From sequence record ON528737: DNA of 64,000 nt; one strand, given 5' to 3'. Under the pieces are notes generated by a model that saw only the letters and a program-made list of their open reading frames with translations, did not search any database and was not told the DNA's origin. Of the stretch, positions 12,601 through 27,804 are shown piece after piece; the first letter of the stretch is position 1; the number at the start of each line of letters is the position of its first letter. This stretch comes from Shigella phage ESh27. The position numbers and the translations under genes were made by a program.

Positions 12601-13286
<686 letters not shown>

Positions 13287-13299
13287 TTTTCACAAAACA

Positions 13300-13334
13300 G
13301 TTTACATAAGGATGATGATGTGTTACTATCATCC
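13300..13334 (+). promoter_or_regulatory. early promoter (GTTTAC -35, TACTAT -10) with inverted repeat GGATGAT/ATCATCC
   Basis: -35 at 13300-13305, -10 at 13324-13329, 18-nt spacer. Confidence 0.5.
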
Positions 13335-13363
13335 TATCAAATAAACAACCTCAAGGAAATAAA

Positions 13364-13675
13364 ATGAAAACCTATCAAGAATTCATCGCGGAAGCTACTA
13401 AAGCGGATAAAAATTTTGTTATTAACACTAATGGCCCATTAGATGATGAATACGCTAATGCTATTATTAAGTCAATTTCTAATCAAGGCGTTGAAGTAAC
13501 AAATTTCGAATATAAGAAAAATGATACTTATATGGTAATTAGTATCAAAAAAGGTTCAAAGGCCAAAATTAAATCTGCGTTTGGTGTTATGCGAGTTGAC
13601 CAAATTGATAATCATGATTTTTCACAAACTGGGGTTAAACGCCAGAACACTATTTCATCTAAAGGCATAAAATAG
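13364..13675 (+). CDS. internal-protein-like protein with capsid targeting sequence (IPI position)
   Basis: N-terminus MKTYQEFIAEA equals the T4 internal-protein CTS; 103 aa; adjacent to 57B as ipI is in T4. Confidence 0.7.
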   Translation: MKTYQEFIAEATKADKNFVINTNGPLDDEYANAIIKSISNQGVEVTNFEYKKNDTYMVISIKKGSKAKIKSAFGVMRVDQIDNHDFSQTGVKRQNTISSKGIK

Positions 13676-13711
13676 TTTACATCTTGGTAGGACTATGTTA
13701 TAGTAGTCCTA
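13675..13711 (+). promoter_or_regulatory. early promoter cassette with palindrome TAGGACTA-N8-TAGTCCTA over the -10
   Basis: GTTTAC 13675-13680, TATAGT 13699-13704; 37-bp element repeated at 33491-33527. Confidence 0.5.
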
Positions 13712-13736
13712 ACAAAACAACAAAATGGAACCTAAA

Positions 13737-14000
13737 ATGAAAACTTTCAACGAATTCATCTCAGAATCGTCTGGTGTGAAAATTAACAAAGCGGTCAATC
13801 AGGTTATTGCTGATATTCTTAATTTGTATAACATTGACTTAACTCCGCATATCACGCTTGGTAACAAACGAAACTTTTTCATATTTGACACATCCGAACT
13901 TGACGAAAATCAGTTCAATAACATTCAACGTTTTGCGAATGATAAAGGTCTTCGACATGAGCCTGGTGGCTATAAAAAATACGCAATATATTTGAAATAA
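13737..14000 (+). CDS. internal-protein-like protein with CTS
   Basis: N-terminus MKTFNEFISES; start moved to the CTS methionine. Confidence 0.6.
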   Translation: MKTFNEFISESSGVKINKAVNQVIADILNLYNIDLTPHITLGNKRNFFIFDTSELDENQFNNIQRFANDKGLRHEPGGYKKYAIYLK

Positions 14001-14002
14001 AG

Positions 14003-14039
14003 GTATACAAGCCTATATGGATATGTTATAGTAGTCCTA
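14003..14039 (+). promoter_or_regulatory. early promoter cassette (variant -35 GTATAC, -10 TATAGT, TAGTCCTA arm)
   Basis: Shares ...tgttatagtagtccta core with 13675 and 33491 cassettes. Confidence 0.45.
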
Positions 14040-14069
14040 TCAAAACAAATGAGTAAATGGAGAAATAAA

Positions 14070-14255
14070 ATGAAACGCGCTGAACTGATTCGTAATGTTG
14101 CTGTAGTAATTGCTTCAATGGCTTTTAGTTTTTCGATGTTTGTAGGATTCATTTGCGGACTACTGACAACAACCGAAAATTCTATCTCATTGGTAGTAGC
14201 ATTTCTAATCGGTTTAATCGCTATTGTTATGGATAAAATTGCAAAAGGTGAGTAA
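14070..14255 (+). CDS. small hydrophobic membrane protein
   Basis: GGAG then ATG at 14070; two hydrophobic stretches. Confidence 0.5.
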   Translation: MKRAELIRNVAVVIASMAFSFSMFVGFICGLLTTTENSISLVVAFLIGLIAIVMDKIAKGE

Positions 14256-14618
14256 ATGAAATATCATGTATATGCAGATTTTGAAGCAAATCCTTCTAAA
14301 GACCCTGATTGTCGTTTGATACGTAGACCATTTGATTCGGCATCTCAAGCATGGGCTTGGATTAAAACTTGTACTCCTTCTTACACTTTCTTTGAAGTGG
14401 TAGATGATAACGGTGTTCTGCATCCAGAACCTACAGAAACTATTAATTTCCTTCTGTTTGCTGGTTATGACTGTTATCCTCTTGGTGGTATTGATGATCT
14501 TGTTGCTACAGGAAAAACTGTTGAAGCTCTTCGCGAAATTTATAAAAACGCAGAAGAAAATTTTGACTGGTATCATATTGTTGATGCTCATAGCTTTGAA
14601 GTGGTGGAACATTCATGA
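14256..14618 (+). CDS. hypothetical protein
   Basis: 120-aa ORF, tightly packed with neighbours. Confidence 0.6.
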   Translation: MKYHVYADFEANPSKDPDCRLIRRPFDSASQAWAWIKTCTPSYTFFEVVDDNGVLHPEPTETINFLLFAGYDCYPLGGIDDLVATGKTVEALREIYKNAEENFDWYHIVDAHSFEVVEHS

Positions 14619-14905
14619 TTCTTTATGCTAAAGTGTCATCTATTGAGAACGGATACGAAAGCGACCAACGTGCAGCTAAAGCACTAGTTGATGACTACGG
14701 TATTCTGACTAACTTTGAGGTTGAAAAGGTTTATATCGACCGTTCATCTTCGCAAGTTAAATTACTCTGTGAAGATGATAAATTTAACACAGTTAACTTT
14801 GATTTCTTTATTGAAACAGAAAAAGGCCCTCTTGAATACAATATTTTCAAGAATCCTTTGAAATTACGTTGCATTGAATATAATTACATTAATATGGTAC
14901 GGTGA
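14615..14905 (+). CDS. hypothetical protein
   Basis: 96-aa ORF, ATGA overlap with upstream gene. Confidence 0.55.
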   Translation: MILYAKVSSIENGYESDQRAAKALVDDYGILTNFEVEKVYIDRSSSQVKLLCEDDKFNTVNFDFFIETEKGPLEYNIFKNPLKLRCIEYNYINMVR

Positions 14906-14909
14906 GTAA

Positions 14910-15425
14910 ATGAATATTTGTTTAGGCAGTACAATTCCTAAGGGTTATGTAATTGATGTCACTACCTATGAAAATGATGGTGACAACTATAAAACCAAAA
15001 CATTGTTTGAAGTGGAAGAGCATGAGCTCCAACAGTTTAAATATCTTTTGAAGAAATTTAAGAGTCGTCATTCTAGCACTAAAGCTGAACGTTACTGTGG
15101 TAATACACCATTCAGTGATTGCTCGCTTTTAATCTATGAATACTTGGTTGAAGGATTGTTCTCAGACCAGCTTTATCCAGAATTCATTAAAAAGGTCTTT
15201 GATATTGAAGTCGACCTCGGTAATAAATCTGAAGAAGATGAATCACGTGTATTTGACCTGTTCCGTGAGAATGGATATTTAGTATCAGAAGGTCTCATTG
15301 ATATTCTTGGCCATGCTTCTGAATATTATGATTATGATTTCTTGCGTGTAGTCGAATGTGTTGAATTTGCTTATATTGAAGAAGAAATCGTTTTGCCAAC
15401 TGTTAAAATGATTGATTTGCTTTAA
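14910..15425 (+). CDS. hypothetical acidic protein
   Basis: 171-aa ORF. Confidence 0.6.
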   Translation: MNICLGSTIPKGYVIDVTTYENDGDNYKTKTLFEVEEHELQQFKYLLKKFKSRHSSTKAERYCGNTPFSDCSLLIYEYLVEGLFSDQLYPEFIKKVFDIEVDLGNKSEEDESRVFDLFRENGYLVSEGLIDILGHASEYYDYDFLRVVECVEFAYIEEEIVLPTVKMIDLL

Positions 15426-15504
15426 GAATTATGTGTTATTATTAATTCATACCCTCTATTACCAAAGGTGCTCTAAAGTGCCTTTCATAATAGAAAGTTA
15501 TTTA

Positions 15505-15576
15505 GGCCCTGTAGCTCAATGGGAGAGCTGTCAGCTCATAACTGATAGGTAGCTGGATCGAAACCAGCCAGGGTCA
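15505..15576 (+). tRNA. tRNA with CAT anticodon (Met, or AUA-reading Ile if lysidine-modified as in T4)
   Basis: Hand-folded cloverleaf: acceptor GGCCCTG/CAGGGTC, D stem GCTC/GAGC, anticodon loop CTCATAA, T stem GCTGG/CCAGC, then ACCA. Confidence 0.85.
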
Positions 15577-15601
15577 CCAAACAATTTATGAGAATAACAC
15601 T

Positions 15602-16135
15602 ATGAGAAGCGATGTAGATTGGGACCAAATTAATTTGGCCATTAAAAAGGGCTTAATTGGTCATTATAATTTTGAAATGACTAAAGAACTTATCGAAAAG
15701 GTGGCCTATCTTAAAATTGTGGATAAAGAAAATTTTCTTTTAAAGTCAAGAGCAAAACAACAAGCTATTTGGCGAGTGTTTTGTAGAACTGCTGCTTTAA
15801 ATCTCTTAAAATTTAAAGATGAGTTTGATATAGAAAAAAGCCACCGTCAGGCATTTGTTTATATAATGGCTGACACTAAAAATCCAAATTATTATAAAAT
15901 AGGAAGAAGTATAGAACCTGATATAAGAGCTTTATCAGCAAATACATTTTCTCCATTTAAAAGTTTTAAAATACTATCATTTAGATATTCTCAAGATGCG
16001 GTTGAACTCGAAAAATACTTACATTCAATTTATGAATCTGACCATGTAAACGGTGAATGGTTTTTCTTCCATGATATAAATTCTATAATTAGAAAATTAG
16101 ATTCAAAATCTACTAAATTTGATATACCACTGTGA
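15602..16135 (+). CDS. GIY-YIG superfamily (T5orf172-like) domain protein, putative nuclease
   Basis: FVYIMADTKNPNYYKIGRS...LEKYLHSIY...EWFFF resembles the T5orf172 motif; sits by the tRNA like T4 segB. Confidence 0.6.
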   Translation: MRSDVDWDQINLAIKKGLIGHYNFEMTKELIEKVAYLKIVDKENFLLKSRAKQQAIWRVFCRTAALNLLKFKDEFDIEKSHRQAFVYIMADTKNPNYYKIGRSIEPDIRALSANTFSPFKSFKILSFRYSQDAVELEKYLHSIYESDHVNGEWFFFHDINSIIRKLDSKSTKFDIPL

Positions 16136-16142
16136 GGAAAAT

Positions 16143-16487
16143 ATGAAAGGTAATGTTTACTTAGTAGTTCATGATTTAACGTTTTATTTTAACGAACAGG
16201 ATACAGTTATTTCCGACCGGTTGATTAATTCGTTATATCAACACGCTGATTACGTTTATTTTCAAAATGAATTCGGACATTGGAAGTTCATTAAAAACCG
16301 TTCTGGGTTAACTAGTTTTGAATACTTTGACCGTAAAGACCTTTTAAACGAAATCCCATTGCAACATCGGTTCCAGAAACGCGAATCATTATATTATTGC
16401 CGTCATATATCAAACGCTGAATGTGTTGATGAAGTAATTAATCTATGGCGTAGACGTAGAGAACAAATTGATGATATGTCAAAATAA
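16143..16487 (+). CDS. hypothetical protein
   Basis: GAGGAAA then ATG at 16143. Confidence 0.55.
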   Translation: MKGNVYLVVHDLTFYFNEQDTVISDRLINSLYQHADYVYFQNEFGHWKFIKNRSGLTSFEYFDRKDLLNEIPLQHRFQKRESLYYCRHISNAECVDEVINLWRRRREQIDDMSK

Positions 16488-16649
16488 GAAGCCGGGTCGC
16501 TACCGGCAAGTCGTCGGACTGATGTTCCCTGAGTAAGGACTGGTCTTAATAAATCTTTACTATTTGTTAATATCCCCTTACATCACAGCAGAAACGGCGC
16601 ACAGAATTATCGATTCGAGGAAATATCTTTGCCGTAAGCCGAGTAGCGT

Positions 16650-16750
16650 TTTTGACGGAACGTTCGGATATGGTCGAGATATGGCCTTTTAAAAATATTG
16701 AGTAGCGTCAACTGCTTAATAACCGGGTTCGAATCCCGGCGTTTCGTACA
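16650..16750 (+). ncRNA. candidate tRNA-like or stable RNA (unresolved)
   Basis: Canonical T-arm CCGGG-TTCGAAT-CCCGG at 16723-16739 in a 270-nt ORF-free stretch; could not fold a full cloverleaf by hand. Confidence 0.2.
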
Positions 16751-16799
16751 AACACTTGCCTTAGCAGGTGGAACCCCGACAAGGTTGCCTCAAGGCTTA

Positions 16800-16826
16800 G
16801 CCCCTTCCGAAAGGTTGGGGCTTTTT
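16800..16826 (+). terminator. rho-independent terminator (repeat copy 1)
   Basis: GCCCCTTCCGAAAGGTTGGGGC hairpin plus T5; identical element at 32378 and 33001. Confidence 0.6.
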
Positions 16827-16916
16827 AGTTTGAATCACTCAGAGAATGCTGTTACTGATAATACCAAAGTAATAAATAATTAATAACAAACCGATAAATT
16901 ATTTCAAGGATTTTAA

Positions 16917-17480
16917 ATGAAAACCTATGCCGAATTTTTAACCGAAGCAGCAAAATTACCATCTGAAGCAGATCTTACTAAAGTATTCTTCTACTTGGAT
17001 CCAAAAGACCGTGGCGATTTTCTTAAGTGGAAAGCTAAAGCTATTGAAATGTATAGCATCGATACTAGTTCTTTTACGATGAGTCAAGAAAATAGTTTCA
17101 ATAAAGCGTTTTTCAAAATTTCTAAGAAACTGGCAGCTGGCACACAGGTTCCTAAATCCGCCTTAGCTACTCCTGAACGTGCACCTGTTAAAATTTCTAA
17201 GAATATGTTTGACACTAAAAAATATGTCAATGCTTTGAATAAAGCTCTTGATGCATTGGATGATGCAAAGAAGGCAGCCCGTGATCTTCAAGACGTGTAC
17301 ACTGATTTTGATCGTAAAACTAAAGGTTCTATTTCAAATAGCGAACGCAATAGTGTAAGTGTTTATTCTGATAGCCTTGATGTTCTTGGCGATGCGTATA
17401 CCGAAATTAAAAATCGTATTAACACTGCATCTAAGCTAAAAGCTGCTGCCGAAGCTATAATAACTAAACTAGGTAAATAA
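16917..17480 (+). CDS. internal-protein-like protein with CTS
   Basis: N-terminus MKTYAEFLTEA; 187 aa. Confidence 0.7.
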   Translation: MKTYAEFLTEAAKLPSEADLTKVFFYLDPKDRGDFLKWKAKAIEMYSIDTSSFTMSQENSFNKAFFKISKKLAAGTQVPKSALATPERAPVKISKNMFDTKKYVNALNKALDALDDAKKAARDLQDVYTDFDRKTKGSISNSERNSVSVYSDSLDVLGDAYTEIKNRINTASKLKAAAEAIITKLGK

Positions 17481-17486
17481 TTTTAA

Positions 17487-17512
17487 GCCCTATCTAAATG
17501 ATAGGGCTTTTT
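17487..17512 (+). terminator. rho-independent terminator
   Basis: GCCCTATC-TAAAT-GATAGGGC hairpin followed by TTTTT. Confidence 0.6.
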
Positions 17513-17582
17513 GGTATCTAGGCCTTTCCTCTCCCTGTCCTAGAATTCCCCAAAACTTTTTAAAAATTTTTTTCACAAAACT

Positions 17583-17612
17583 GTTTACATCCCTGTTCTT
17601 CCGTGGTACTAT
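17583..17612 (+). promoter_or_regulatory. early promoter (GTTTAC / TACTAT)
   Basis: 18-nt spacer; downstream ATCAACTAC leader motif. Confidence 0.5.
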
Positions 17613-17653
17613 ACAACTATCAACTACCGATACAGAAAAACTTGGAGAATGAA

Positions 17654-17917
17654 ATGGATAATTACGGTGAACTGTTCAACTTCTTTATGAAATGCGTTCC
17701 AGAAGATTTCGGACGTACGGTGAATGATATTAAAGTTATCGGTCCTGAACACCCTGTGTATGAAACCTATGCAGTAATGGGTAACGAAGATGGACAGTGG
17801 TATACAATTAAAGTTGTGATTAATATGTTCTCAGCTGAAGGTTACGCCAAATCGTCTACCAAAGTTTACCATGATAATGTCGAAATCGCTGAAGAATATT
17901 TCGATAATATGAAATAA
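17654..17917 (+). CDS. hypothetical protein
   Basis: Start MDNYGELF after GGAGAA; upstream in-frame ATG lies before the predicted transcript start. Confidence 0.55.
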   Translation: MDNYGELFNFFMKCVPEDFGRTVNDIKVIGPEHPVYETYAVMGNEDGQWYTIKVVINMFSAEGYAKSSTKVYHDNVEIAEEYFDNMK

Positions 17918-17974
17918 ATGCGTACATGGGCTTATGATTGAGATATTATGAGCCCTATTAATGAGGAGAATATT

Positions 17975-18280
17975 ATGAGTCTTTACACTGAACTGAATAA
18001 AAAATCTGAAGAATCTTCTGAAACTATTTTTAAAAACGTGCAAAAGCGTATTTTAGAAAAGACGTATAATGCTGCAGCTAAAGGTGAAAAATCTTGCCAG
18101 TTTCCGATGAGGTGTTCTTCAGATTTATGCGCAAACACTATTGAATGGCTGGAAAGTGAAGGTCTTACGGTAGAGAAAAACCCGGCGACTTCTATTGACA
18201 GTGAATCATATATTAGTATTTCTTGGGATAAACCTCGTACGAATGAAGGACACTACAAGTTGTTAAGTTGGAAAAATTAA
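17975..18280 (+). CDS. hypothetical protein
   Basis: GAGGAGAA then ATG at 17975. Confidence 0.55.
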   Translation: MSLYTELNKKSEESSETIFKNVQKRILEKTYNAAAKGEKSCQFPMRCSSDLCANTIEWLESEGLTVEKNPATSIDSESYISISWDKPRTNEGHYKLLSWKN

Positions 18281-18288
18281 AAATAATG

Positions 18289-18318
18289 ATGTACAAACAC
18301 CAAGGATGGTGATACTAT
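18289..18318 (+). promoter_or_regulatory. early promoter (variant -35, TACTAT -10, CACCA/TGGTG repeat)
   Basis: Same downstream ATCAACTAC...GAGGAG leader as other cassettes. Confidence 0.45.
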
Positions 18319-18347
18319 AGACTTATCAACTACAGAGGAGAAACAAA

Positions 18348-18575
18348 ATGGCTAAAGTTAGTATTGATGTCGTTGATTATGAATACACCGAAGAAGTTAT
18401 TCGCAACCGACACCCTGAAGTTCGTATCGATTCAGTCCAAGATTCCAAGTTCTGGACAACTGAGCTTAATCTGAGTGGTCCTTATGAAGCTGTTAAGAAG
18501 TTCATGGTTGAAGAATATTGCGAAGGCATGCACCCAGAAGACGCCAAGTTTTATGTCAATTTGATTAAAAAATAA
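18348..18575 (+). CDS. hypothetical protein
   Basis: 75-aa ORF after GAGGAGAAACAAA. Confidence 0.6.
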   Translation: MAKVSIDVVDYEYTEEVIRNRHPEVRIDSVQDSKFWTTELNLSGPYEAVKKFMVEEYCEGMHPEDAKFYVNLIKK

Positions 18576-18623
18576 TTTACAAACTCTTGAGAGCAGAGTA
18601 TAATGCTCTCGTTGGATAATAAA
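18575..18623 (+). promoter_or_regulatory. early promoter cassette (TATAAT -10 inside GAGAGCA/TGCTCTC palindrome), repeat copy A
   Basis: 41 bp 18583-18623 identical to 48207-48247. Confidence 0.5.
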
Positions 18624-18645
18624 CCACCAATTGAAAGGTAATAAT

Positions 18646-19239
18646 ATGAACACACTGAAGAAACTTGTTGAATTCATTCGCACTAAACTGGGTACTGCTA
18701 TGGCTAAAAATCTGACTGTCGAAGAACAGTATAACGCAGCCGCAGATAAGTTGATTACCCAAATCAAAGAACTAAAAACGGCTTCTATTAAATCTATTAA
18801 TGAAGAAAAACGTATTCGCGAACTTGTTAATGAAAAGAACAAGCAAGCCGCTTCTAAGGAACGTGAAATTCGTAAGCTCCTGGCTGAAGGACAAGATGTT
18901 ACCATGCATGCTAAGCTTGGACTTCTGTATCGTCGAACCGCCGAACAACTTAATACAAAAGCTGACGGGTATGCCGCTATGCGAATTGAAATTGCTCGTA
19001 AGGTGGTTGAACTTGACGATGCTCGTCAGAACCTGGCAATCAAACTTGAATACATCCGCGAAACTCGAGCAGCCAATGCCCTTGGTATCTCTACAGCTGA
19101 TGATGTAATTGAAATTGCTGCACTGACTAAGGTTGATATCGAAGACACTCTGACTCGTGTTGAAACATTCAATGGCACTCCAGCCGGTGTTGAAACCACT
19201 TCTGCTGATGTACAAGAATATATTAACTCTTTGAAATAA
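18646..19239 (+). CDS. hypothetical coiled-coil protein
   Basis: 197 aa, charged heptad-like sequence; AAAGG then ATG at 18646. Confidence 0.6.
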
Positions 19240-19247
19240 AATAATAC

Positions 19248-19269
19248 GGAGGACTCCGGTCCTCCTTTT
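19248..19269 (+). terminator. rho-independent terminator
   Basis: GGAGGAC-TCCG-GTCCTCC hairpin then TTTT. Confidence 0.55.
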
Positions 19270-19288
19270 GGATAATAAAGGAGTTAAC

Positions 19289-19891
19289 ATGCGAAACCAA
19301 AATAATGATATTGACTCAATGTTCGAAGAGTTCCGAGATAAGGTAAATCCACCTACGTCTTTAGTTGATTCATTACGATATGTTGCAACTGGACGTAAAT
19401 GGTATTGGTCGTCTTCTTATGAGACTACTGAGAAAACGGCTAGCCATAGCAGAAAATCTTTATTAGCCCCAGGTATTATGATTCATGATATCGGAGCTAT
19501 TGCTAAACTAGTTGCAGACCATGATATTAGATTCACTGATTTCGTTGCTCCTACGTGGTCTGTTTGTTGTTTAAACACTGAATGGGAATATATCAGCGAA
19601 CGCTCTGAAGATTATTATGGTTTTAGAGATAAGCTTTTAAGGTCTAACATGTTTTATATCGATACTGAAGTTCTAGTCGATAATAAAAAATATTACTTTA
19701 CGTTAATCGTCGATTCTGAAACTATGTATGAAGGCAAGCCTTTGCTTAAAAGAGTTGATGCTTTAAGTGCTATTGATGCGCTTTATGAAACTATGGTTGT
19801 TAGTCCTAATTTCACTAACAATTTAATCCTTGAGCAATTTATTATGGAATGTAGAGAATATGTCAAAGCCAACCCTGTACATGCCAATTAA
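19289..19891 (+). CDS. hypothetical protein
   Basis: AAAGGAG then ATG at 19289. Confidence 0.6.
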   Translation: MRNQNNDIDSMFEEFRDKVNPPTSLVDSLRYVATGRKWYWSSSYETTEKTASHSRKSLLAPGIMIHDIGAIAKLVADHDIRFTDFVAPTWSVCCLNTEWEYISERSEDYYGFRDKLLRSNMFYIDTEVLVDNKKYYFTLIVDSETMYEGKPLLKRVDALSAIDALYETMVVSPNFTNNLILEQFIMECREYVKANPVHAN

Positions 19892-20255
19892 GCCCTGGGC
19901 ATACGAATACAAACGTAAATTAATCCCAAATGAAGTACTATTTGGCCCTATTTTAGCTTTAGCATTTTTAATCTTTATGATTATAGGAGCTGTTTTAGAT
20001 TCCAACAAAGTTATATCGTCTGATGCAGCGTTTTCATTAATGTTCGTCGCACCACTTATTGTACCGTTTTTATTAATGCCTATTAATTGGGCAGGATATT
20101 GGCACCAAGGCCGTCATCACAGAGCCCGATTAAGAGAATGGAAAGTTCAGTGTGCAAAAGCCCAAGCTCAGTATGATGAAGCTGTTAAAAAATATGAATA
20201 TGAAGAAGCCATGGAATTCGTTAAGGAGATAAGATGCAAAAGCCTCAACTCTTAA
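19860..20255 (+). CDS. membrane protein (start uncertain)
   Basis: Hydrophobic segments; overlaps upstream gene end; ATG at 19860 or 19881. Confidence 0.45.
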   Translation: MSKPTLYMPIKPWAYEYKRKLIPNEVLFGPILALAFLIFMIIGAVLDSNKVISSDAAFSLMFVAPLIVPFLLMPINWAGYWHQGRHHRARLREWKVQCAKAQAQYDEAVKKYEYEEAMEFVKEIRCKSLNS

Positions 20256-20593
20256 CCGTATGGCCTTCTCTTGGTGAGAACATTCTAATTTTTATTATGA
20301 GTATTGGCATGGGATTTGCCTTTGGATTAGTTGGATTTATTATTGACGGCGTTGTGTTAGGATTTATAGGGAACACTGGTGGATTCACAGACCAATGGCA
20401 GGACTTACGGTATACCCAAGCCTTTGCATCCATCGCATCGTTTTGTACTGTAGCCTATTTTTACTACGATTTTATAAACCATAACAAGAAAAATAAAAAA
20501 GTTTACGCTTCTCAAATGATTAGTTATAATGAACTTCTAGCTAGACGTGAAAATGAAACAATCGAAAACTTTATTAAGGAATGTAGAAAATGA
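20234..20593 (+). CDS. membrane protein
   Basis: 119 aa with two hydrophobic helices. Confidence 0.55.
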   Translation: MQKPQLLTVWPSLGENILIFIMSIGMGFAFGLVGFIIDGVVLGFIGNTGGFTDQWQDLRYTQAFASIASFCTVAYFYYDFINHNKKNKKVYASQMISYNELLARRENETIENFIKECRK

Positions 20594-20895
20594 GTAAGAT
20601 TATTGAAATTAAAGTACCAGAGTTTAATGATGCCAAATCCGCTTCAGATGCAATTTATAAACTTCTGAATCAAGCTGAACGTATCGAAGAAGAAGCAACA
20701 AAGATCGCAGACCAATATGCCGTATCATTTTCTGTAGGTGATTATGGTAGCGGTCGTACTTATTATCCTAAGGGTGAAATTGTATCCCAGTGGATGAAAG
20801 ATGAAATTGAAAATAATGGTGGCGATGTTAAGCGTGAAGGTAATGGTTACGTTATTACTGAAGGTGCTTGGGTTTCGTCTTCTGCGTTGTGCTAA
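20590..20895 (+). CDS. small protein, C-terminal GWVSSSxxC family, paralog A
   Basis: Ends ...ITEGAWVSSSALC; AAGGAA-type RBS. Confidence 0.6.
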   Translation: MSKIIEIKVPEFNDAKSASDAIYKLLNQAERIEEEATKIADQYAVSFSVGDYGSGRTYYPKGEIVSQWMKDEIENNGGDVKREGNGYVITEGAWVSSSALC

Positions 20896-20904
20896 GGAAT
20901 CATT

Positions 20905-21177
20905 ATGTCTAAAGAACAAACCGAACTGGCTGAAGCCGTAGCAAAAATCTATGCAGCTATTGAGGCTGCCAAAGAAATTGCTAATAAACAAAACACAACA
21001 TTCGACTTGTATCCAGCTTATGGCATGGGTGGAACCTATCATTCACCAGGACATCTTAAAGCCGATCTTGAACGTTGTACAAAAAACGGCTATGCTGAAT
21101 GGGCTGACGTTTACCAATATGACTACAACCTGAGCCTTGAAGATGGCGGTTGGGTTGCATCTTCTCACACTTGTTAA
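20905..21177 (+). CDS. small protein, C-terminal GWVSSSxxC family, paralog B
   Basis: Ends ...EDGGWVASSHTC. Confidence 0.6.
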   Translation: MSKEQTELAEAVAKIYAAIEAAKEIANKQNTTFDLYPAYGMGGTYHSPGHLKADLERCTKNGYAEWADVYQYDYNLSLEDGGWVASSHTC

Positions 21178-21186
21178 GGAAATCAT

Positions 21187-21384
21187 ATGTCTCGCGAATT
21201 AGATTGTGCTGTACGTACGGCAGTAGCTGCTCTGGAAAACCTGTTCCAGATTGCAACCGAAGAGCGTGAAGAAGTTACATTGTGGATTGAAGATAACGCA
21301 GGTCTGAATCTCCAGGACGCGATCTCATTATCCAATAATAGCATTACTGTTCAAGGCTGGGTATCATCTAGTTATTCTTGCTAA
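21187..21384 (+). CDS. small protein, C-terminal GWVSSSxxC family, paralog C
   Basis: Ends ...TVQGWVSSSYSC. Confidence 0.6.
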   Translation: MSRELDCAVRTAVAALENLFQIATEEREEVTLWIEDNAGLNLQDAISLSNNSITVQGWVSSSYSC

Positions 21385-21388
21385 AACA

Positions 21389-21425
21389 GTTTACAACAAG
21401 ATAGGGCTATGTTATAGTAGTCCTA
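21389..21425 (+). promoter_or_regulatory. early promoter cassette (GTTTAC / TATAGT / TAGTCCTA arm)
   Basis: Same core as the 13675 cassette with one arm mismatch. Confidence 0.5.
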
Positions 21426-21446
21426 TCAAATTAAATGGAGTCCACA

Positions 21447-21686
21447 ATGATTTATTACGAAAGTATCGGAACCGAAGTAGTTGCTAAAACTATTACTCGT
21501 GAAAGGTTTGCAAAGATATTCGATATGCGTTATAAAAAATCTGAACACAAAGGCATCCGATTCGAAGATGCGCACTGTACAATTTGTCCTTATAATGAAG
21601 ACATAAACGGTACAATCGTTCCGTTGGTAGAGGCTTCACATGATGACCTCTGGGATGAATATAATATCGCATGTCGTGAAATTTAA
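21447..21686 (+). CDS. hypothetical protein
   Basis: GGAG then ATG at 21447. Confidence 0.55.
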   Translation: MIYYESIGTEVVAKTITRERFAKIFDMRYKKSEHKGIRFEDAHCTICPYNEDINGTIVPLVEASHDDLWDEYNIACREI

Positions 21687-21711
21687 GTAATCTAAATTTG
21701 AGGAAATTATT

Positions 21712-22668
21712 ATGATGTTAGTTATTGGTTCTCGTGCACTTCACTATCACGGCCTTATTGATTCTAGCGCTATCAAAAATAGTGATTGGGACTTTATTGC
21801 GGACCAAGGTTCTTGGAATGCATTCAAAAATCAAATGATGGGTGTATATGTTCACCAAGATAACCCTGATGTCCAAGTTTTCAAATGCTTCCATAATGGA
21901 CGCGAAACTCATTTTGAAGCATATATTGTTCCGGCAATCACTAATGTCCGTGAATTAGTCGGTGAACTCACTCCTGAAGATTTCACGTCTTCTTATGACC
22001 TTTTAAAATATGCCAAGAAAAATTTGACTAAAGACCGTTTGAACGGGTTTTACTGGGCAACTCCTGAGATGTGCCTTGCAATTAAGATGTCCCATCGTTT
22101 CAAGAAAAATAATCCATTCTTTTTAAAGACTATGAACCATATTCAGTATCTTCGTGGTAAAGGTGTTACACTGAACGATGAACTTACTGAAATTATGCTG
22201 AAACGCCAGAAAGAAACCTTGAACTATGCCCACCCAGTTCTTGACACTTCTAAAAGCGCATTCTTTAAAGATGACATCTATACATATGACCATGATACTA
22301 TTCACGAAGCCATTGCACTAACAGACCGTCCAGCGTATACATTTTATATGAAAGATGGTTCTGAAGTCATGACCTCACGCGAGAAGTTCGAATCATTACC
22401 AGAAATGGTCAAATTGGCCGGTGTATACGAAGAATCATGTGTACTAGCATTAGAACGTTCTCAGATTCCTAATGACTTTAAAATTAACCCTGAAGCCAGT
22501 TTCATGATGGCATTAGAAAAAGTCTGTACAAGCATCACCTCGGGTTGGTTCCGTGAGTATGCCTGGGAAAACTACAGCAAAGTAGTAAGTATGTACCAAA
22601 GCTTAGGACATGATGATTACGTCAAACGTTTCAAACAAAATTTCCATATGGTAAAACCTTTCAAATAA
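21712..22668 (+). CDS. hypothetical protein, possible nucleotidyltransferase fold
   Basis: 318 aa; N-terminal IGSRAL...SDWDF resembles a loosened GS...DxD motif; assignment weak. Confidence 0.6.
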   Translation: MMLVIGSRALHYHGLIDSSAIKNSDWDFIADQGSWNAFKNQMMGVYVHQDNPDVQVFKCFHNGRETHFEAYIVPAITNVRELVGELTPEDFTSSYDLLKYAKKNLTKDRLNGFYWATPEMCLAIKMSHRFKKNNPFFLKTMNHIQYLRGKGVTLNDELTEIMLKRQKETLNYAHPVLDTSKSAFFKDDIYTYDHDTIHEAIALTDRPAYTFYMKDGSEVMTSREKFESLPEMVKLAGVYEESCVLALERSQIPNDFKINPEASFMMALEKVCTSITSGWFREYAWENYSKVVSMYQSLGHDDYVKRFKQNFHMVKPFK

Positions 22669-22680
22669 CTTCACAAAACT

Positions 22681-22717
22681 GTTTACACAATTATAGGACT
22701 ATGTTATAGTAGTCCTA
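22681..22717 (+). promoter_or_regulatory. early promoter cassette with perfect palindrome TAGGACTA-N8-TAGTCCTA
   Basis: GTTTAC 22681-22686, TATAGT 22705-22710. Confidence 0.5.
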
Positions 22718-22738
22718 TTAAAACATGAGGAGAATATT

Positions 22739-23044
22739 ATGAAATTATCCGAAACCAACCGAATTGGCCTTTTAACGATACTTACATCACCTTTTTATGC
22801 TGTGCTTTCTGTTGCAGTATTACAAAAGGCCTATGGCATGGACGGTGTTCCTGGTTGTGTATTTTTATCACCATTTTTGTTATTCGTTGGTGCTCTGTTA
22901 TTATACGCGACAACAGGTTTCGACCATAATGTTTGGGTCAAGTTTAAACGTAGATTAACTGAAGAAGAACACGCTGAAGCTCGTAAAAAAGCTATTGAAT
23001 CAACAGATTTAGAAAATTTTGTTAAAGAATGTCGAGGAAAATAA
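22739..23044 (+). CDS. membrane protein
   Basis: 101 aa, two hydrophobic helices. Confidence 0.6.
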   Translation: MKLSETNRIGLLTILTSPFYAVLSVAVLQKAYGMDGVPGCVFLSPFLLFVGALLLYATTGFDHNVWVKFKRRLTEEEHAEARKKAIESTDLENFVKECRGK

Positions 23045-23045
23045 T

Positions 23046-23732
23046 ATGAATAGTTCTAAAGTGTTTAATAGTCAAGCTCGTGCAGTAGGTGGTTTTGCTC
23101 ACGATATTAAGAATGACGAAATCAAAAATGAACCTATGTTCTTTAACTGTGATTTGAGTTTTGCTTGGGATAATGGTGGCCCAATCACTCGTAGCTTTAT
23201 TGCCAATCTCCCAATTGATTGGACTAATCAACATGTTGTATTCGATTCTCGGGTTCATATGCTGATGCCTGGTTGGTATCCTGCTATTCCTGGTTATCAC
23301 CATGACGATGTACCACGCCCAGATATTCCAACAGGACAACATTTTATTACTGCAGGACAACCTGATTATGACAATCCTCGCTATTTGTCTGAACATATTC
23401 TTGGTCTTGTTAACGCTGATGTGTGTCCTACTCATTTTGCAACAGGAACTGCAGAGTTCAGTCAGATTCCTGATGGCGAACTTATCTATCGCCAGTGGCA
23501 CAAAGAAGTCCTCGAAAAAATTGAAAAAGGTGAACTAGAGAAATGGGAAGCTCCAGATCGTACTCTTCTTCAGTTTGATTGGCAAACATGGCACACTGGT
23601 TCTCGTGCAATTAGTAACGGATGGCGTTGGTTCGGACGTGTATCTCGTAATACAGACCGAGTTAAAAAGATTACCAATGAAATTCGTGTCAATGCTCAAG
23701 TTTATCTGGAATTCCCTATGGAAGGCTGGTAA
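23046..23732 (+). CDS. hypothetical protein (His/Trp-rich)
   Basis: GAGGAAAA then ATG at 23046; 228 aa. Confidence 0.6.
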   Translation: MNSSKVFNSQARAVGGFAHDIKNDEIKNEPMFFNCDLSFAWDNGGPITRSFIANLPIDWTNQHVVFDSRVHMLMPGWYPAIPGYHHDDVPRPDIPTGQHFITAGQPDYDNPRYLSEHILGLVNADVCPTHFATGTAEFSQIPDGELIYRQWHKEVLEKIEKGELEKWEAPDRTLLQFDWQTWHTGSRAISNGWRWFGRVSRNTDRVKKITNEIRVNAQVYLEFPMEGW

Positions 23733-24223
23733 TGATTAACAAAACATATTGGTCTAATATAGACGATGGCAACGAAGGTATTTCGTACTATTCAGTGGAT
23801 TGGACAGGATGTCCATCCTACTTAGTGAAACGTATTTGTCAAGAATTTAAAATCGACCAGCCAGCAGGTATTATCGTGAACAGATACATTAATGGATATC
23901 AACCTATCGATGAAGTAATAAGAACAACTCAAGCCGAGCTTGAAAAGTTTTTCAATAAGTGCCAATGGATAACAGGATGGATTATATTTGTACCGTCGGT
24001 ATGGTTTTTTAGTACTAAAGTAAGTGCCTTTGCCATACCAGATATTATCGCTATATTATTAGCATCTACTATCGTAAGTATTATTGGTGGTATTATTGGT
24101 GGAGGTACTATAGGCATCATTATTAATCTTGTTAAAAGTAGTTTACAGGAACGTAAAGACAAGATAAAGGCCAAGAATAATGAAGTTGAACGTTTTATTA
24201 CCGAATGCAGGAATTTGAGATGA
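23732..24223 (+). CDS. membrane protein with glycine-zipper segment
   Basis: IIGGIIGGGTIGIII hydrophobic Gly-rich helix. Confidence 0.6.
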   Translation: MINKTYWSNIDDGNEGISYYSVDWTGCPSYLVKRICQEFKIDQPAGIIVNRYINGYQPIDEVIRTTQAELEKFFNKCQWITGWIIFVPSVWFFSTKVSAFAIPDIIAILLASTIVSIIGGIIGGGTIGIIINLVKSSLQERKDKIKAKNNEVERFITECRNLR

Positions 24224-24456
24224 GTATAGCAATTTACATTAAATCAGAATCGTGTGATAGTTATCTGTACACATATGATAAAGATGTGTCAGAAGAAAAA
24301 ATCAAAGACGATCTTAATATGGACCTTGATTTGTTCCGTCCTATTGCAGATTACAAACTTGCGGTCTCTAATAGTGAAAGTCCATCTAAAGAAACACGCA
24401 TTGAAGAATTTATGTCCGAATTAATGGCCAAATCATGGGACCGAGATGATGAGTAA
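24220..24456 (+). CDS. hypothetical acidic protein
   Basis: ATGA start/stop overlap with upstream gene. Confidence 0.5.
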   Translation: MSIAIYIKSESCDSYLYTYDKDVSEEKIKDDLNMDLDLFRPIADYKLAVSNSESPSKETRIEEFMSELMAKSWDRDDE

Positions 24457-24904
24457 GAAAAATAAAGTGAAAGAGCTATCAGCCGGTATTATTTTCCTTA
24501 CCGAAGATAAAGAGTTATTCATGGGCCGTGTAACTGGTTCTCGTCCTAAAGGTTCTTTAGCTCATCGGTGGGATATTCCTAAAGGCCGTGTCGAACCCGG
24601 CGAATCTCCTATCGAAGCCGCTATTCGTGAATGCGAAGAAGAAACTGGGTTTACACAATATGACCCTGCCTTCCTGAAAGACCTAGGTGAACATCATTAC
24701 TCAGACAATAAGAATATTCATCTGTTCCTATATACCATCCCTGTAGAGCACGAGCAATTCAGAAACAGTGTTTGTAATTCCTATCATACATTCCCGGACG
24801 GACGACAGATTCCTGAATTTGATGCATTCGCTTTAATTAAACCTTCTCAATGGGAATATGTGATGGGCAAATCATTATATAAGGTGCTCACTACCATCCT
24901 ATAA
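24446..24904 (+). CDS. nudE: Nudix hydrolase NudE
   Basis: Nudix box GRVEPGESPIEAAIRECEEETG; 152 aa; adjacent to gene e. Confidence 0.85.
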   Translation: MMSKKNKVKELSAGIIFLTEDKELFMGRVTGSRPKGSLAHRWDIPKGRVEPGESPIEAAIRECEEETGFTQYDPAFLKDLGEHHYSDNKNIHLFLYTIPVEHEQFRNSVCNSYHTFPDGRQIPEFDAFALIKPSQWEYVMGKSLYKVLTTIL

Positions 24905-24910
24905 GTAATA

Positions 24911-24938
24911 AATACCTCCTATAAACGTGGGAGGTATT
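24911..24938 (+). promoter_or_regulatory. hairpin pairing the lysozyme SD with an upstream arm; late-promoter-like TATAAACG in the loop
   Basis: AATACCTCC (24911-19) / GGAGGTATT (24930-38) inverted repeat. Confidence 0.5.
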
Positions 24939-25427
24939 ATGAATATATTTGAAATGCTTCGTAATGACGAAGGTCTTAGACTGACTTTATACAAAGACAC
25001 CGAAGGCTTTTGGACGATTGGCATAGGCCATTTGGTAACAAAGGACCCGTCTTTAGCCGTAGCTAAAGCTGAACTTGATAGAATGATCGGTCGTAAATGC
25101 AACGGTACAATTACCCTTGATGAGGCTGAAAAGCTATTTAATGAAGATGTTGATAAAGCCGTTCGCGGAATCTTGGGTAATGCTAAACTTAAACCGGTAT
25201 ATGATTCTTTAGATGCAGTTCGTCGATGTGCATTGGTCAATATGGTCTTCCAAATGGGTGTAGCAGGCGTTGCTGGTTTTACTAATTCTCTTCGTATGCT
25301 TCAACAGAAACGTTGGGACGAAGCGGCAGTAAATCTAGCCCAATCTAAATGGTATCGTCAGACACCTAATCGCGCGAAACGCGTAATCTCAACATTTAAA
25401 ACAGGAACTTGGAAAGCGTATATATGA
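24939..25427 (+). CDS. e: endolysin (T4 lysozyme)
   Basis: MNIFEMLR...DEAEKLFN...[22 protein letters not shown] matches T4 lysozyme. Confidence 0.96.
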
Positions 25428-25705
25428 AAACATATAGTGAATTTTTATCAGAATCTATTCTTAACGAAGCTACTGACACATTTGCAACTAAGCTAGGTGC
25501 AGCTTTGGTTGAAGCTGAAAGTCTATTAGCACGTATTTCTGAACTTGCTAGTAAGATAGATACTCGCAAATTTGAGCGCACCAGTGATATCGTTAAGCTT
25601 GAAGCACTGTTGCGTATGTGCGATAAACCAGAAGAAATCGCTAAGAACGGCTCGCTGATGAAACAACGTCTTGAAAAATATATTTCAGGCGCTTCAGAAA
25701 AATAG
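25424..25705 (+). CDS. internal-protein-like protein with CTS
   Basis: N-terminus [11 protein letters not shown]; ATGA overlap with gene e stop. Confidence 0.7.
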
Positions 25706-25706
25706 T

Positions 25707-25760
25707 GTTTACTTCCTCCAAGGACTTTGATACTATACATTCATCAACTACTTGGAGGAA
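25707..25760 (+). promoter_or_regulatory. early promoter inside a 10-bp inverted repeat that includes the denV SD
   Basis: GTTTAC 25707-12, TACTAT 25731-36; arms TTCCTCCAAG (25714-23) / CTTGGAGGAA (25751-60). Confidence 0.55.
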
Positions 25761-25763
25761 ATT

Positions 25764-26177
25764 ATGACTCGTATCAATTTAACACTTGTTTCTGAACTGA
25801 CTGACCAACATCTTATGGCTGAGTATCGTGAATTACCACGCGTATTTGGTGCAGTCCGTAAACATGTTCAAAACGGTAAACGTGTAAAGGATTTTAAAAT
25901 CTCTCCGACATTTATCTTAGGCACGGGTCACGTAACATTCTTTTACGACAAACTCGAATTTTTACGTTTACGTCAAATCGAGCTAATCACTGAATGCTTG
26001 AAACGTGGTTTCAAAATCAAGGACACGACAGTCCAGGATATTTCCGACATCCCTGCCGAATTTCGTAATAATTATGTCCCGTCCGAAGCGTCCATTGCGA
26101 TAAGTCAAGCACGCTTAGATGAAAAAATTGCTCAACGTCCGACTTGGTACAAATACTATGGTAAATCAATTTACTAA
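25764..26177 (+). CDS. denV: endonuclease V (pyrimidine dimer DNA glycosylase)
   Basis: [34 protein letters not shown]... matches T4 DenV. Confidence 0.96.
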
Positions 26178-26183
26178 GGAAAA

Positions 26184-26444
26184 ATGAAAATGTATCAAGA
26201 ATTTATCACTGAAGCAGATGCCAAAGGTCCTAAATTTAAAGTTAAAGCTTTCATTGGTGATGCGGAAGACTTTGGCTCGTTAAAACGTAATGGGTATTCT
26301 TTCTTAGGTGGCGATGGTAAAGAAATCAACACCTATGCAAAACGTAGTGAAATTGCTTATGTTGTAGCAAGCCCTAAAGTAGATGCTGACGATATTGGAT
26401 ACGATTTTAACAACTTCGGAATTATTTCTGGCGGTAAAGCTTAA
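26184..26444 (+). CDS. internal-protein-like protein with CTS
   Basis: N-terminus MKMYQEFITEA; 86 aa. Confidence 0.65.
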   Translation: MKMYQEFITEADAKGPKFKVKAFIGDAEDFGSLKRNGYSFLGGDGKEINTYAKRSEIAYVVASPKVDADDIGYDFNNFGIISGGKA

Positions 26445-26446
26445 AT

Positions 26447-26478
26447 TGTTTACGCTTAAGTATTAATATGGTATAATT
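26447..26478 (+). promoter_or_regulatory. early promoter (GTTTAC / TATAAT)
   Basis: Followed by the CTATCAAAACAA leader motif. Confidence 0.45.
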
Positions 26479-26507
26479 ACTCTATCAAAACAAACAAGGA
26501 AACAAAA

Positions 26508-27086
26508 ATGAAAACATATAAAGAATTTATCGCCGAGGCCTTTGCAGGAAAAGTCCAAGGCATTAATAAGGACGAGTGGAATTATCGTGGCGGAAACGGC
26601 TTTGACCCTAAAACTGCTCCTATTGAACGGTACTTAGCTACAAAGGCTTCCGACTTTAAAGCCTTCGCTTGGGAAGGACTTCGCTGGCGTAACGATCTAA
26701 ATATTGAAGTTGATGGTCTTAAATTTGCTCATATTGAAGATGTTGTTGCTAGTAACTTAGACGCAGCTTTTGTTAAAGCCGACAGTGACCTTCGTCGCTG
26801 GAATTTAAAACTGTTCTCTAAACAAAAAGGCCCGAAGTTTGTGCCTAAAGCAGGTAAATGGGTCATTGATAATAAATTGGCTAAAGCTGTCAACTACGCT
26901 GGTCTTGAATTTGCCAAGCATAAATCATCATGGAAAGGTCTTGACGCAATGGCTTTCCGTAAAGAATTTGCCGATGTTATGGCTAAAGGCGGCTTTAAGG
27001 CAGAAATAGATACCTCTAAAGGTACGTTTAAAGACGCTAATGTTCAGTACGCTTACGCCGTTGCTAATGCAGCCCGTGGTAATTAA
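26508..27086 (+). CDS. internal-protein-like protein with CTS (IPIII-sized)
   Basis: N-terminus MKTYKEFIAEA; 192 aa. Confidence 0.7.
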   Translation: MKTYKEFIAEAFAGKVQGINKDEWNYRGGNGFDPKTAPIERYLATKASDFKAFAWEGLRWRNDLNIEVDGLKFAHIEDVVASNLDAAFVKADSDLRRWNLKLFSKQKGPKFVPKAGKWVIDNKLAKAVNYAGLEFAKHKSSWKGLDAMAFRKEFADVMAKGGFKAEIDTSKGTFKDANVQYAYAVANAARGN

Positions 27087-27088
27087 TA

Positions 27089-27110
27089 AGGCCTATACTT
27101 AGGCCTATTT
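27089..27110 (+). terminator. terminator-like hairpin
   Basis: AGGCCT-ATACTT-AGGCCT then ATTT, directly after the stop codon. Confidence 0.4.
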
Positions 27111-27264
27111 ACATTCAACTAAAATGGGAACAACCTGGACCTCATTATTCTATGAGGGATTCCCGCCAACCTGTAATAAGGTCGAGCCCAAGTGCGGTAA
27201 TGGGTAAATACAGAAACGGACAAGTCATGCGCCATGGAATGGCCCAAACCTTAAGAGAAATAAT

Positions 27265-27804
27265 ATGAGAACATTTTTAACTGGACCTTATCTATCCCTG
27301 ATGAATGCTTTTACACACCATTCTGATGCTAGAGTAGAAGAAATTTGTAAGAACGGTTATACCCCACCATTTGAAGATGTACTCAAGCAGTACTGTACAC
27401 TTCGTTTAGACGGCGGCAGACAATCAGGTAAATCAATTGCTGTGACTAACTTTGCTGCTAATTGGCTGTATGATGGTGGAACAGTTATTGTTCTTTCTAA
27501 TACTTCAGCTTATGCTAAAATTTCTGCTGGCAACATTGAAAAAGAATTTTCGCGTTATTCTAGCGACGATATTCGATTCCGTTTATTTACTGATTCTGTT
27601 CGTAGTTTTATTGGCAATGAAGGTTCTAAATTCCGTGGATTAACGCTTTCTCGTATTCTGTATATAATTGACGAGCCTATTAAAGCTCCTGATATGGATA
27701 AGATTTACAATGTCCATATTAAAACAGTCCAACACTGCTGTAAAAGCAAATATTGCAACGGCGGTATTGCTCGTCCTCAATTTTTTGTGATTGGAATGCA
27801 ATGA
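27265..27804 (+). CDS. small P-loop NTPase
   Basis: Walker A GGRQSGKS and Walker B ILYIIDE. Confidence 0.6.
   Translation: MRTFLTGPYLSLMNAFTHHSDARVEEICKNGYTPPFEDVLKQYCTLRLDGGRQSGKSIAVTNFAANWLYDGGTVIVLSNTSAYAKISAGNIEKEFSRYSSDDIRFRLFTDSVRSFIGNEGSKFRGLTLSRILYIIDEPIKAPDMDKIYNVHIKTVQHCCKSKYCNGGIARPQFFVIGMQ

Follow-up and report, generated by a model that had tools for sequence, protein, structure and literature searches.

A 64,000-nucleotide stretch of Shigella phage ESh27 (sequence record ON528737), called the window below, carries six open reading frames (ORFs) whose products begin with a ten-residue leader of the kind found on the internal proteins of phage T4. The ORFs were lettered A to F in window order, from 13364 to 26508, and all lie on the + strand: A (13364–13675, 103 aa, leader MKTYQEFIAE), B (13737–14000, 87 aa, MKTFNEFISE), C (16917–17480, 187 aa, MKTYAEFLTE), D (25424–25705, 93 aa, overlapping the stop codon of the lysozyme gene e), E (26184–26444, 86 aa, MKMYQEFITE) and F (26508–27086, 192 aa, MKTYKEFIAE). 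Over 12800–27300 the window is ∼96% identical to the RB69-like phages phiE142, PhAPEC2 and RB69, and the source phage is assigned by sequence to the RB69-like T-even phages, genus Mosigvirus. The gene order is that of T4, with gene 1, 57A, 57B, A, B and tRNA.4/.3/.2 and, further on, nudE, e, D, denV, E, F and vs.8. A, B, D, E and F sit in the two variable internal-protein (ip) loci, 57B–tRNA.4 and e–denV–vs.8. C lies ∼3 kb from the first of these, between rnaC/rnaD and e.8, outside both classical loci and at a place where T4 has no gene. In the RefSeq record of phiE142, A, B, D, E and F are labelled 'internal head protein' or 'internal virion protein' and C alone is 'hypothetical'; the PHROGs families of A, B, D and F are likewise labelled as internal head or virion proteins, and that of C as of unknown function.

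A six-frame scan of the window with the motif MKx[YFW]xEF[ILVM]xE returned exactly these six ORFs and nothing in 100 shuffles, and a looser leader motif applied to the same 64 kb added no further ORF. The consensus of the six N-termini is MK[TM][YF]xEF[IL]xE followed by Ala or Ser, as the first-pass annotation of this DNA had proposed. Conservation stops at the end of the leader: mean pairwise amino-acid identity among A–F is 0.71 over residues 1–10, 0.09 over residues 11–20 and 0.07 over residues 21–30, and nucleotide identity is 0.75 over nt 1–30 and 0.34 and 0.30 in the following two blocks. In T4, the first 10 residues of IPIII suffice to target foreign proteins to the head, with residues 4 and 7 of the leader serving targeting and residues 8 and 10 serving processing by the gp21 protease (PMC9026906). 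All four residues are retained in each of the six proteins, for B if the start is taken as 13737 rather than the in-frame ATG four codons upstream at 13725 (MEPK-MKTF...), the same start being used for ipI in the RB69 annotation. A cleavage motif closes each leader (IAE↓A in A, ISE↓S in B, LTE↓A in C, LSE↓S in D, ITE↓A in E and IAE↓A in F). D has [LIV]xE sites ending at residues 10 and 15, the second being ILNE↓A. These features bear out the proposal that the shared N-terminus is the T4 capsid-targeting sequence (CTS).

Behind the leader, the bodies of A–F are mutually unrelated by BLAST, and by profile A and E both match phrog_2667 ('internal head protein') over their full lengths (E = 7e-39 and 2.8e-21, respectively). 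The description of the genes as paralogues that diverge completely is thus right for the leader and for the collapse in identity after residue 10, and has to be amended for the bodies, which are unrelated modules except for the A/E pair. Six genuine paralogues made by tandem duplication were considered and rejected, because only the leader is common to them, A/E again excepted. None of the six genes matched any Pfam family at the cut-off, and a sequence search of solved structures with B, C and F gave nothing meaningful. The bodies had also been called uncharacterised, which is wrong for F; A, B, D and E fall in named internal-protein (Ip) families (Ip7, Ip9 and Ip5-like), and ip4–ip10 have already been screened against restriction enzymes of the GmrSD family. 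The Ip family names used here rest on GenBank and UniProt labels and on secondary citations.

At the first locus, A is 100% identical to RB69ORF156c and 66–68% identical to the Ip7 proteins of RB15 and T2, and is classed in the Ip7 family. Its predicted mature form starts ATKADKNF and has a mass of 10.3 kDa and an isoelectric point (pI) of 9.5. The structure prediction that had been suggested for each body gave a compact AlphaFold2 model for A and an unreliable one for C. In the A model, residues 15–82 form a core with a predicted local distance difference test (pLDDT) score of ∼90 and a ferredoxin-like fold of ∼70 residues, flanked by a floppy leader and a disordered basic tail. The core resembles IPI* in size, and its top match in BFVD is Ip7 of phage MX01, the structural neighbours being otherwise uninformative. 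B matches phrog_7673 (E = 7e-49), is 71–72% identical to Ip9 of RB15 and RB32 and is placed in the Ip9 family. RB69 and T4 carry ipI in the slot of B, the RB69 copy being 94% identical to T4 IPI.

The body of B also occurs outside the T-even phages. In Escherichia phage KS_A3, a Seuratvirus, it is a leaderless 74-aa protein mislabelled 'internal head protein' (locus L124, 2992–3216), and in Salmonella phage Mansal, a Kuttervirus, it makes up the C-terminal ∼80 residues of a 950-aa protein (locus L125, 406–3258). The DNA modifications of Seuratvirus and Kuttervirus differ from those of the T-even phages. That this body occurs without the leader favours the view that the leader has been joined to an independently folding cargo.

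At the second locus, D matches phrog_3499 ('internal head protein', E = 1.2e-46), is 100% identical to the body of RB69ORF127c and 48–51% identical to ip5 of T2 and PP01, and is regarded as Ip5-related. E is 95% identical to RB69ORF125c, has a body of 76 aa, is labelled 'internal head protein' in several RefSeq records, and also matches phrog_35655; we class it as a distant Ip7-family paralogue, at the profile level only. F is taken to be the orthologue of T4 IPIII (Ip3), with which it shares 93% identity over 178 aa (E = 9e-125); its PHROGs match is phrog_5341 (E = 1e-117), and none of A–E matches IPIII. The predicted mature form of F has a mass of 20.3 kDa and a pI of 9.6, and the terminator scan places a terminator-like hairpin directly after the gene (27089–27106, + strand).

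Six tagged genes are indeed more than the three of T4, as had been remarked, but the number is ordinary: RB69 has seven leader-type genes (ORF156c, ipI, ORF149c/148c, ORF127c, ORF125c, ORF124c and ORF123c), and more than three is therefore normal for the group. Several of these genes are damaged in the deposited records. In the RB69 record, C is frameshift-split into ORF149c/148c (locus L001, 4184–4746) and the leader of D reads MKTYMNFYQNLSLNE, ∼10 codons out of frame (L001, 12971–13252), and in PhAPEC2 an internal deletion cuts E to 38 aa (record positions 63313–63429). These lesions could be real decay or old sequencing errors.

Early-type promoters of the form GTTTAC-N17-TAnnnT precede A, B and F, and the flanking elements were found upstream of these three genes only. 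The promoter upstream of A (13301–13329, + strand) reads TTTACA-17-TACTAT, and its hexamers enclose an inverted repeat, AGGATGAT...ATCATCCT; promoter/stem-loop elements of this type have been described for the IP loci (PMC2839356). That upstream of B (13676–13704, + strand) reads TTTACA-17-TATAGT with a stem-loop TAGGACTA...TAGTCCTA, and is the left copy of a repeat flanking B, whose right copy (14004–14046, + strand; ..TATGTTATAGTAGTCCTATCAAAAC) was identified by alignment and promoter scan. The promoter upstream of F (26449–26477, + strand) is TTTACG-17-TATAAT and TG-extended.

These elements and the leader codons mark the places at which the window departs from RB69. In the case of B, the window and RB69 are almost the same in sequence across 57B, A and the promoter that precedes B; the match fades inside B's leader codons and is restored at the ..TATGTTATAGTAGTCCTATCAAAAC repeat, so that an early promoter and stem-loop stand on both sides of the cassette. 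In the case of F, identity to RB69 is ≥95% up to ∼26535, the end of the F leader, then collapses until ∼27140–27180, returning ∼50–90 bp beyond the F stop codon; where this phage has Ip3, RB69 carries two leader-tagged genes, ORF124c and ORF123c. The swaps relative to RB69 thus break at leader codons and at flanking promoter/stem-loop repeats. The repertoire is probably a reshuffled collection of cassettes, exchanged between phages through two kinds of homology patch, the leader codons, which are conserved, at the 5′ end and the early-promoter/stem-loop repeats around the genes; this would account for related phages holding different cargo in the same slots.

Leader pattern matches are also common outside the T-even group. 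A leader DNA pattern scan of IMG/VR viral contigs matched at least 120 stretches. The matches listed (loci L004–L123, for example L033 6037–6816, L056, L059 and L065) hold 135 leader-bearing ORFs of 27–836 aa, which fall into 72 unrelated body clusters. The cargo behind these leaders includes an ART-PolyVal ADP-ribosyltransferase (E = 1e-23), a DUF6267 protein (E = 3e-118) and a cytidylyltransferase-like protein, and one of the ORFs encodes an SNF2-helicase and DNA-methylase protein. As judged from these sequences, the leader seems to serve for loading cargo in general, far outside the T-even phages, and the enzymes found behind it in environmental contigs suggest that its use is much wider than the T-even literature implies.

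Since recombination breakpoints coincide with the leader codons, and nucleotide identity over nt 1–30 is about equal to amino-acid identity, the shared 30 nt could be read as a transcription- or translation-initiation cassette spread by recombination, the peptide likeness being a by-product with no role in targeting. However, the T4 decapeptide packages foreign proteins, and substitutions at residues 4, 7, 8 and 10 affect its targeting or cleavage; phrog_2280, the family of C, keeps the peptide pattern with other residues at positions 2–3 and 5; and the 135 viral-contig ORFs among the matches listed carry the leader pattern on unrelated bodies. We find the cassette explanation scarcely credible. 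It is likely that A–F are T4-type internal proteins, each consisting of a CTS of ∼10 residues and an unrelated cargo domain.

In the mechanism that we propose, the leader would bind the gp22/gp67/gp68 scaffolding core, so that the protein is built into the prohead, as has been shown in T4. The gp21 prohead protease would then cut after Glu10 in [IL]-x-E, freeing the cargo inside the head, with a possible further cut after Glu15 in D. Possibly hundreds of copies per virion would be injected with the DNA before phage genes are expressed, if T4 is a guide. The head machinery that this mechanism calls on (gp20, gp67, gp68, gp21, gp22 and gp23) is encoded in the ∼96% identical RB69 and PhAPEC2, at loci outside the 64-kb window. 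A, B, D, E and F are very likely packaged and processed internal proteins; we consider that C probably is as well. The density of gp21-type motifs per residue in the bodies is 4-fold below that in ten neighbouring proteins (P ∼0.001), a difference that reflects composition and an ad hoc control set and is only suggestive.

Several points weigh against packaging and processing on the T4 pattern. Depletion of internal [LIV]xE sites, assessed by shuffling each body, was not significant (4 observed versus 6.4 expected, P = 0.19). D and E are near-neutral (pI 6.3–6.4), whereas the classical internal proteins are basic. No copy of the late promoter TATAAATA lies upstream of any of A–F, the only + strand copy recorded for the 12800–27400 region being at 12239 inside gene 1, and A, B and F have early-type promoters, which leaves the supply of protein for late head assembly unexplained; a T4 omics paper is silent on the ip genes, their expression timing included. 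Finally, a search for virion proteomics or N-terminal data turned up none, either for this phage or for any Mosigvirus.

The charge of the remaining proteins bears on another possibility, that they mainly serve the virion, by neutralizing DNA charge, aiding packaging or ejection, or assisting core and head assembly, with anti-defence activity secondary. A, B, C and F are basic (pI 9.0–9.6), lysines of internal proteins contact DNA phosphates, and in IPIII mutants of T4 head assembly runs at about half its usual speed and the burst falls to ∼40% of normal. On the other hand, the T4 IP genes are dispensable, even the triple mutant being viable (PMC9026906), D and E are not basic, and Ip3 is active from the host cytoplasm without its CTS, rescuing infection from there (PMC9391042). 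Gene content moreover varies in close relatives (E truncated in PhAPEC2, B and ipI swapped, F in place of two other genes), a pattern that fits an arms-race cargo, not a structural need. A mainly structural role is improbable.

The cargo would on this account act in the cell as a first-response counter-defence, most likely by inhibiting, stoichiometrically, particular type IV restriction enzymes of the GmrSD family, which attack the sugar-modified cytosine DNA of the lineage. T-even internal proteins have been described as diverse defence proteins with only the CTS in common (PMC3012670). Ip1, Ip2 and Ip3 of T4 each inhibit a distinct GmrSD type IV enzyme, and both ip loci have been argued to be dedicated to this family (PMC12373910). 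The DNA of RB69-type phages contains arabinosylated cytosines and is attacked by GmrSD enzymes (PMC6024577), and BrxU, an enzyme of the GmrSD family, restricts a Mosigvirus and cleaves DNA that contains 5-arabinosyl-dC (PMC13390438). The suggestion that the genes are candidates for injected anti-defence proteins is thus well founded, and experiments on the T4 orthologue of F have borne it out. T4 Ip3 inhibits the GmrSD of ECOR17, and by orthology F likely inhibits a GmrSD of the ECOR17 type. GmrSD inhibition by A–E is speculative: BLAST of the bodies of A–E against T4 IPI, IPII and IPIII found no similarity at E < 0.05, and among A–F only F is homologous to an Ip with a demonstrated GmrSD target. 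It is conceivable, and we put it forward tentatively, that A–E too target GmrSD-family enzymes rather than other defences.

An observation against GmrSD as the general target is that no inhibition could be reproduced when ip4–ip10 of T4-like phages were screened against 15 GmrSD groups, and the targets of Ip5-, Ip7- and Ip9-type proteins may therefore not be GmrSD enzymes. Most of the cargo (A–E) might instead act against other systems, such as other modification-dependent nucleases, DNA glycosylases, BREX or type I restriction–modification, or abortive-infection sensors acting at DNA entry. The presence of the B body in Seuratvirus and Kuttervirus, which are unrelated to the T-even phages, points the same way. 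So does the leader on enzymes of environmental phages (the ART-PolyVal ADP-ribosyltransferase and a nucleotidyltransferase-like protein), from which it follows that cargo is not limited to one target class. Against this, all three Ips with known targets inhibit GmrSD-family enzymes, both loci are seen by the authors of PMC12373910 as dedicated to them, and the panel tested is a small part of a very diverse family. We regard non-GmrSD targets for most of A–E as rather doubtful, though worth keeping in view.

The exception among the six genes is C. It matches phrog_2280 ('unknown function') over its full length (E = 1.5e-51) and is 97% identical to RB69ORF149c, and its 177-aa body is all-helical and in two parts. 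Relatives of C occur in 164 phage records, and all 40 of those listed read 'hypothetical protein'. Exhaustive searching of 1.84 billion representatives with HMMER brought up a single distant relative or cluster, at 31% identity. A leader match in the viral contigs, followed up by tblastn, pointed to the JS98 gp135 type, which occurs in 144 phage records (of 40 listed, 37 'hypothetical protein' and 3 unannotated). JS98 gp135, PG7_146 and PhAPEC2 gp134 match phrog_2280 with E = 1e-53 to 1e-59, and the leader is retained in all of the distant relatives JS98 gp135, PG7_146, CHI14, Kosakonia 305, Marfa, COW86c and P0038. Members of the family span Dhakavirus, Mosigvirus, Winklervirus, Kanagawavirus, Karamvirus, Marfavirus and an Erwinia phage, with an N-terminus of the form M-x-x-F-x-E-F-[IL]-x-E; they are two-domain helical proteins of ∼19–22 kDa with a Pro/Ala/Lys-rich linker. 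The leader and its cleavage motif are retained in 9/9 members examined, drawn from no fewer than seven genera, and a further [IV]-x-E↓AG site is frequent. In the phrog_2280 alignment, mean pairwise identity is 0.60 in the leader and 0.41 in the remainder, the body identity to C of the window falling to ∼26–31%.

The phrog_2280 genes are syntenic across relatives, lying after the tRNA cluster and before e.8. A leader scan of the complete 167-kb genome of PhAPEC2 found matching ORFs in two places only, the e/denV locus and this third site; the T4-type ipI leader at the classical first locus escaped the motif. At the third site PhAPEC2 has two tandem tagged paralogues. The second of these, gp134 (locus L137, 22823–23287, leader MKSYAEFLTE), adjoins the C orthologue, and a hypothetical ORF of the same size stands at the corresponding position in phiE142 (locus L002, 4115–4579). 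In the window that position is occupied by homologues of rnaD and rnaC (16482–16829, + strand), with 92% identity over 349 nt to the T4 stretch in which rnaD and rnaC (species 2 and 1) are annotated. This segment is apparently non-coding and shows a tRNA-like T-arm and a terminator-like hairpin at ∼16800–16828, read by eye and absent from the terminator scan list; it gave no Rfam match at the gathering threshold and no tRNA by ARAGORN. Directly after C is an intrinsic-terminator-like hairpin (17485–17509, + strand) with a 10-bp stem followed by a T run.

It has to be asked whether C is an internal protein at all, or whether its family is unpackaged, a leader-like N-terminus having been inherited by, or having converged on, a cytoplasmic protein, in which case there is no third ip locus. 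According to PMC2839356, IP genes occupy just two small loci that have early-promoter/stem-loop elements on their flanks, and there is an 'absence of IP genes elsewhere'. C lies outside both loci and has no promoter/stem-loop element, which counts against a third locus. The uniform 'hypothetical protein' labels (40/40 listed of the 164 C records, 37/40 of the JS98-type records listed) are in keeping with an unpackaged protein, as are differences at leader positions 2–3 in several genera (ML[NK]F..). Yet residues 4, 7, 8 and 10 are retained in 9/9 members while body identity falls to ∼26–31%, and many members have a second [IV]-x-E↓A site, as do IPI and D. The leader motif is found nowhere else in 167 kb of a complete relative, so that a chance occurrence is unlikely, and PhAPEC2 has two tandem tagged paralogues at the site. 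We therefore consider an unpackaged C family unlikely.

If C is packaged, the confinement of IP genes to two loci needs revision, and ∼300 deposited genomes (164 + 144 records) gain an annotation. The stretch from the tRNA/stable-RNA cluster to e.8 might then be a third, unrecognized ip locus occupied by phrog_2280, whose product is possibly injected and has a function more general than inhibition of one GmrSD enzyme, a plausible but tentative reading. The more general function is suggested because far more lineages have this family, at a single syntenic position, than have the rapidly swapped classical Ips. Such a third locus would contradict the 'two loci only' statement of PMC2839356.

Other features of the window were noted in passing. 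A 177-aa ORF with a T5orf172/MUG113 (GIY-YIG-related) domain lies directly after tRNA-Met (15602–16135); it is placed like the homing endonuclease gene segB in the T4 tRNA cluster and is not at the same spot in RB69 or PhAPEC2. Three tandem small ORFs at 20590–21384 (101, 90 and 65 aa; the RB69ORF139c/137c/136c region) have a common C-terminal GWV[SA]SSxxC and look like a small paralogous family. Four hydrophobic ORFs at 19830–20593, 22739–23044 and 23732–24223 (homologues of e.4, e.3, RB69ORF133c and e.2) end in a common F[IV][KT]E[CI]R and are probably membrane proteins.

Overall, the feature is real, had been correctly interpreted and is largely known, because RefSeq already labels five of the six genes and the literature covers the variants, the loci and the anti-restriction role. 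For the two ip loci, the first-pass interpretation is the accepted textbook one; five of the six genes are alleles of named families, expected and annotated in the group, for which nothing changes. We read the modest new part as C and phrog_2280, an unrecognized, widely conserved, leader-tagged family at a third locus. The practical value lies in a precise catalogue for a Mosigvirus with arabinosylated DNA, with an Ip3 orthologue and no Ip1 or Ip2, in which the Ip5-like, Ip7, Ip7-like and Ip9 alleles form a ready test set for new defence/counter-defence pairs.

Several known systems invite comparison. P1 DarA/DarB and T4 Alt are head-loaded proteins, injected together with the DNA, that act before phage gene expression; they differ from A–F in their targeting signals and in the proteins themselves, and have no sequence relationship to them. 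The promoter–early stem-loop (PeSL) cassettes of RB49 and phi1 share with the arrangement here an early promoter with a stem-loop between or over the hexamers, on both sides of a small accessory gene and at swap boundaries (PMC2839356). However, the authors of that work view the IP-locus elements as analogues, not homologues, of PeSLs, and each of the swaps described here has one of its boundaries within the leader codons themselves.

The polymorphic T-even proteins Ip4–Ip13 and beyond (Repoila et al. 1994, as cited in PMC12373910 and PMC2839356) are the closest named relatives. At least 10 Ips are cited (PMC12373910), and >30 variants are given by Comeau 2007 as cited in PMC2839356. The likenesses are those of A to Ip7, B to Ip9 and D to Ip5, together with the early-promoter/stem-loop flanks and cassette exchange, as far as these are described in PMC12373910 and PMC2839356. 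The Mosigvirus alleles are nevertheless 28–52% diverged from the named prototypes, and E is an Ip7 relative at the profile level only.

The genes of the window have in common with the T4 Ips the decapeptide MKT[YF]xEF[IL]xE, with A or S as the next residue, their genomic slots (one after 57B, the other around e/denV) and two size classes of ∼8–10 kDa and ∼20 kDa, F being the direct Ip3 orthologue. They differ in that this phage has no Ip1 or Ip2 homologue and an Ip9-type gene replaces ipI, in that denV stands between D and E/F, and in having six tagged genes rather than three, with C at a third site. RB69 is nearer still, with a region ∼96% identical and with ORF156c, ORF149c, ORF127c and ORF125c 95–100% identical to A, C, D and E, respectively; the two phages differ at the remaining two slots, where B replaces the RB69 ipI and F (Ip3) replaces ORF124c and ORF123c.

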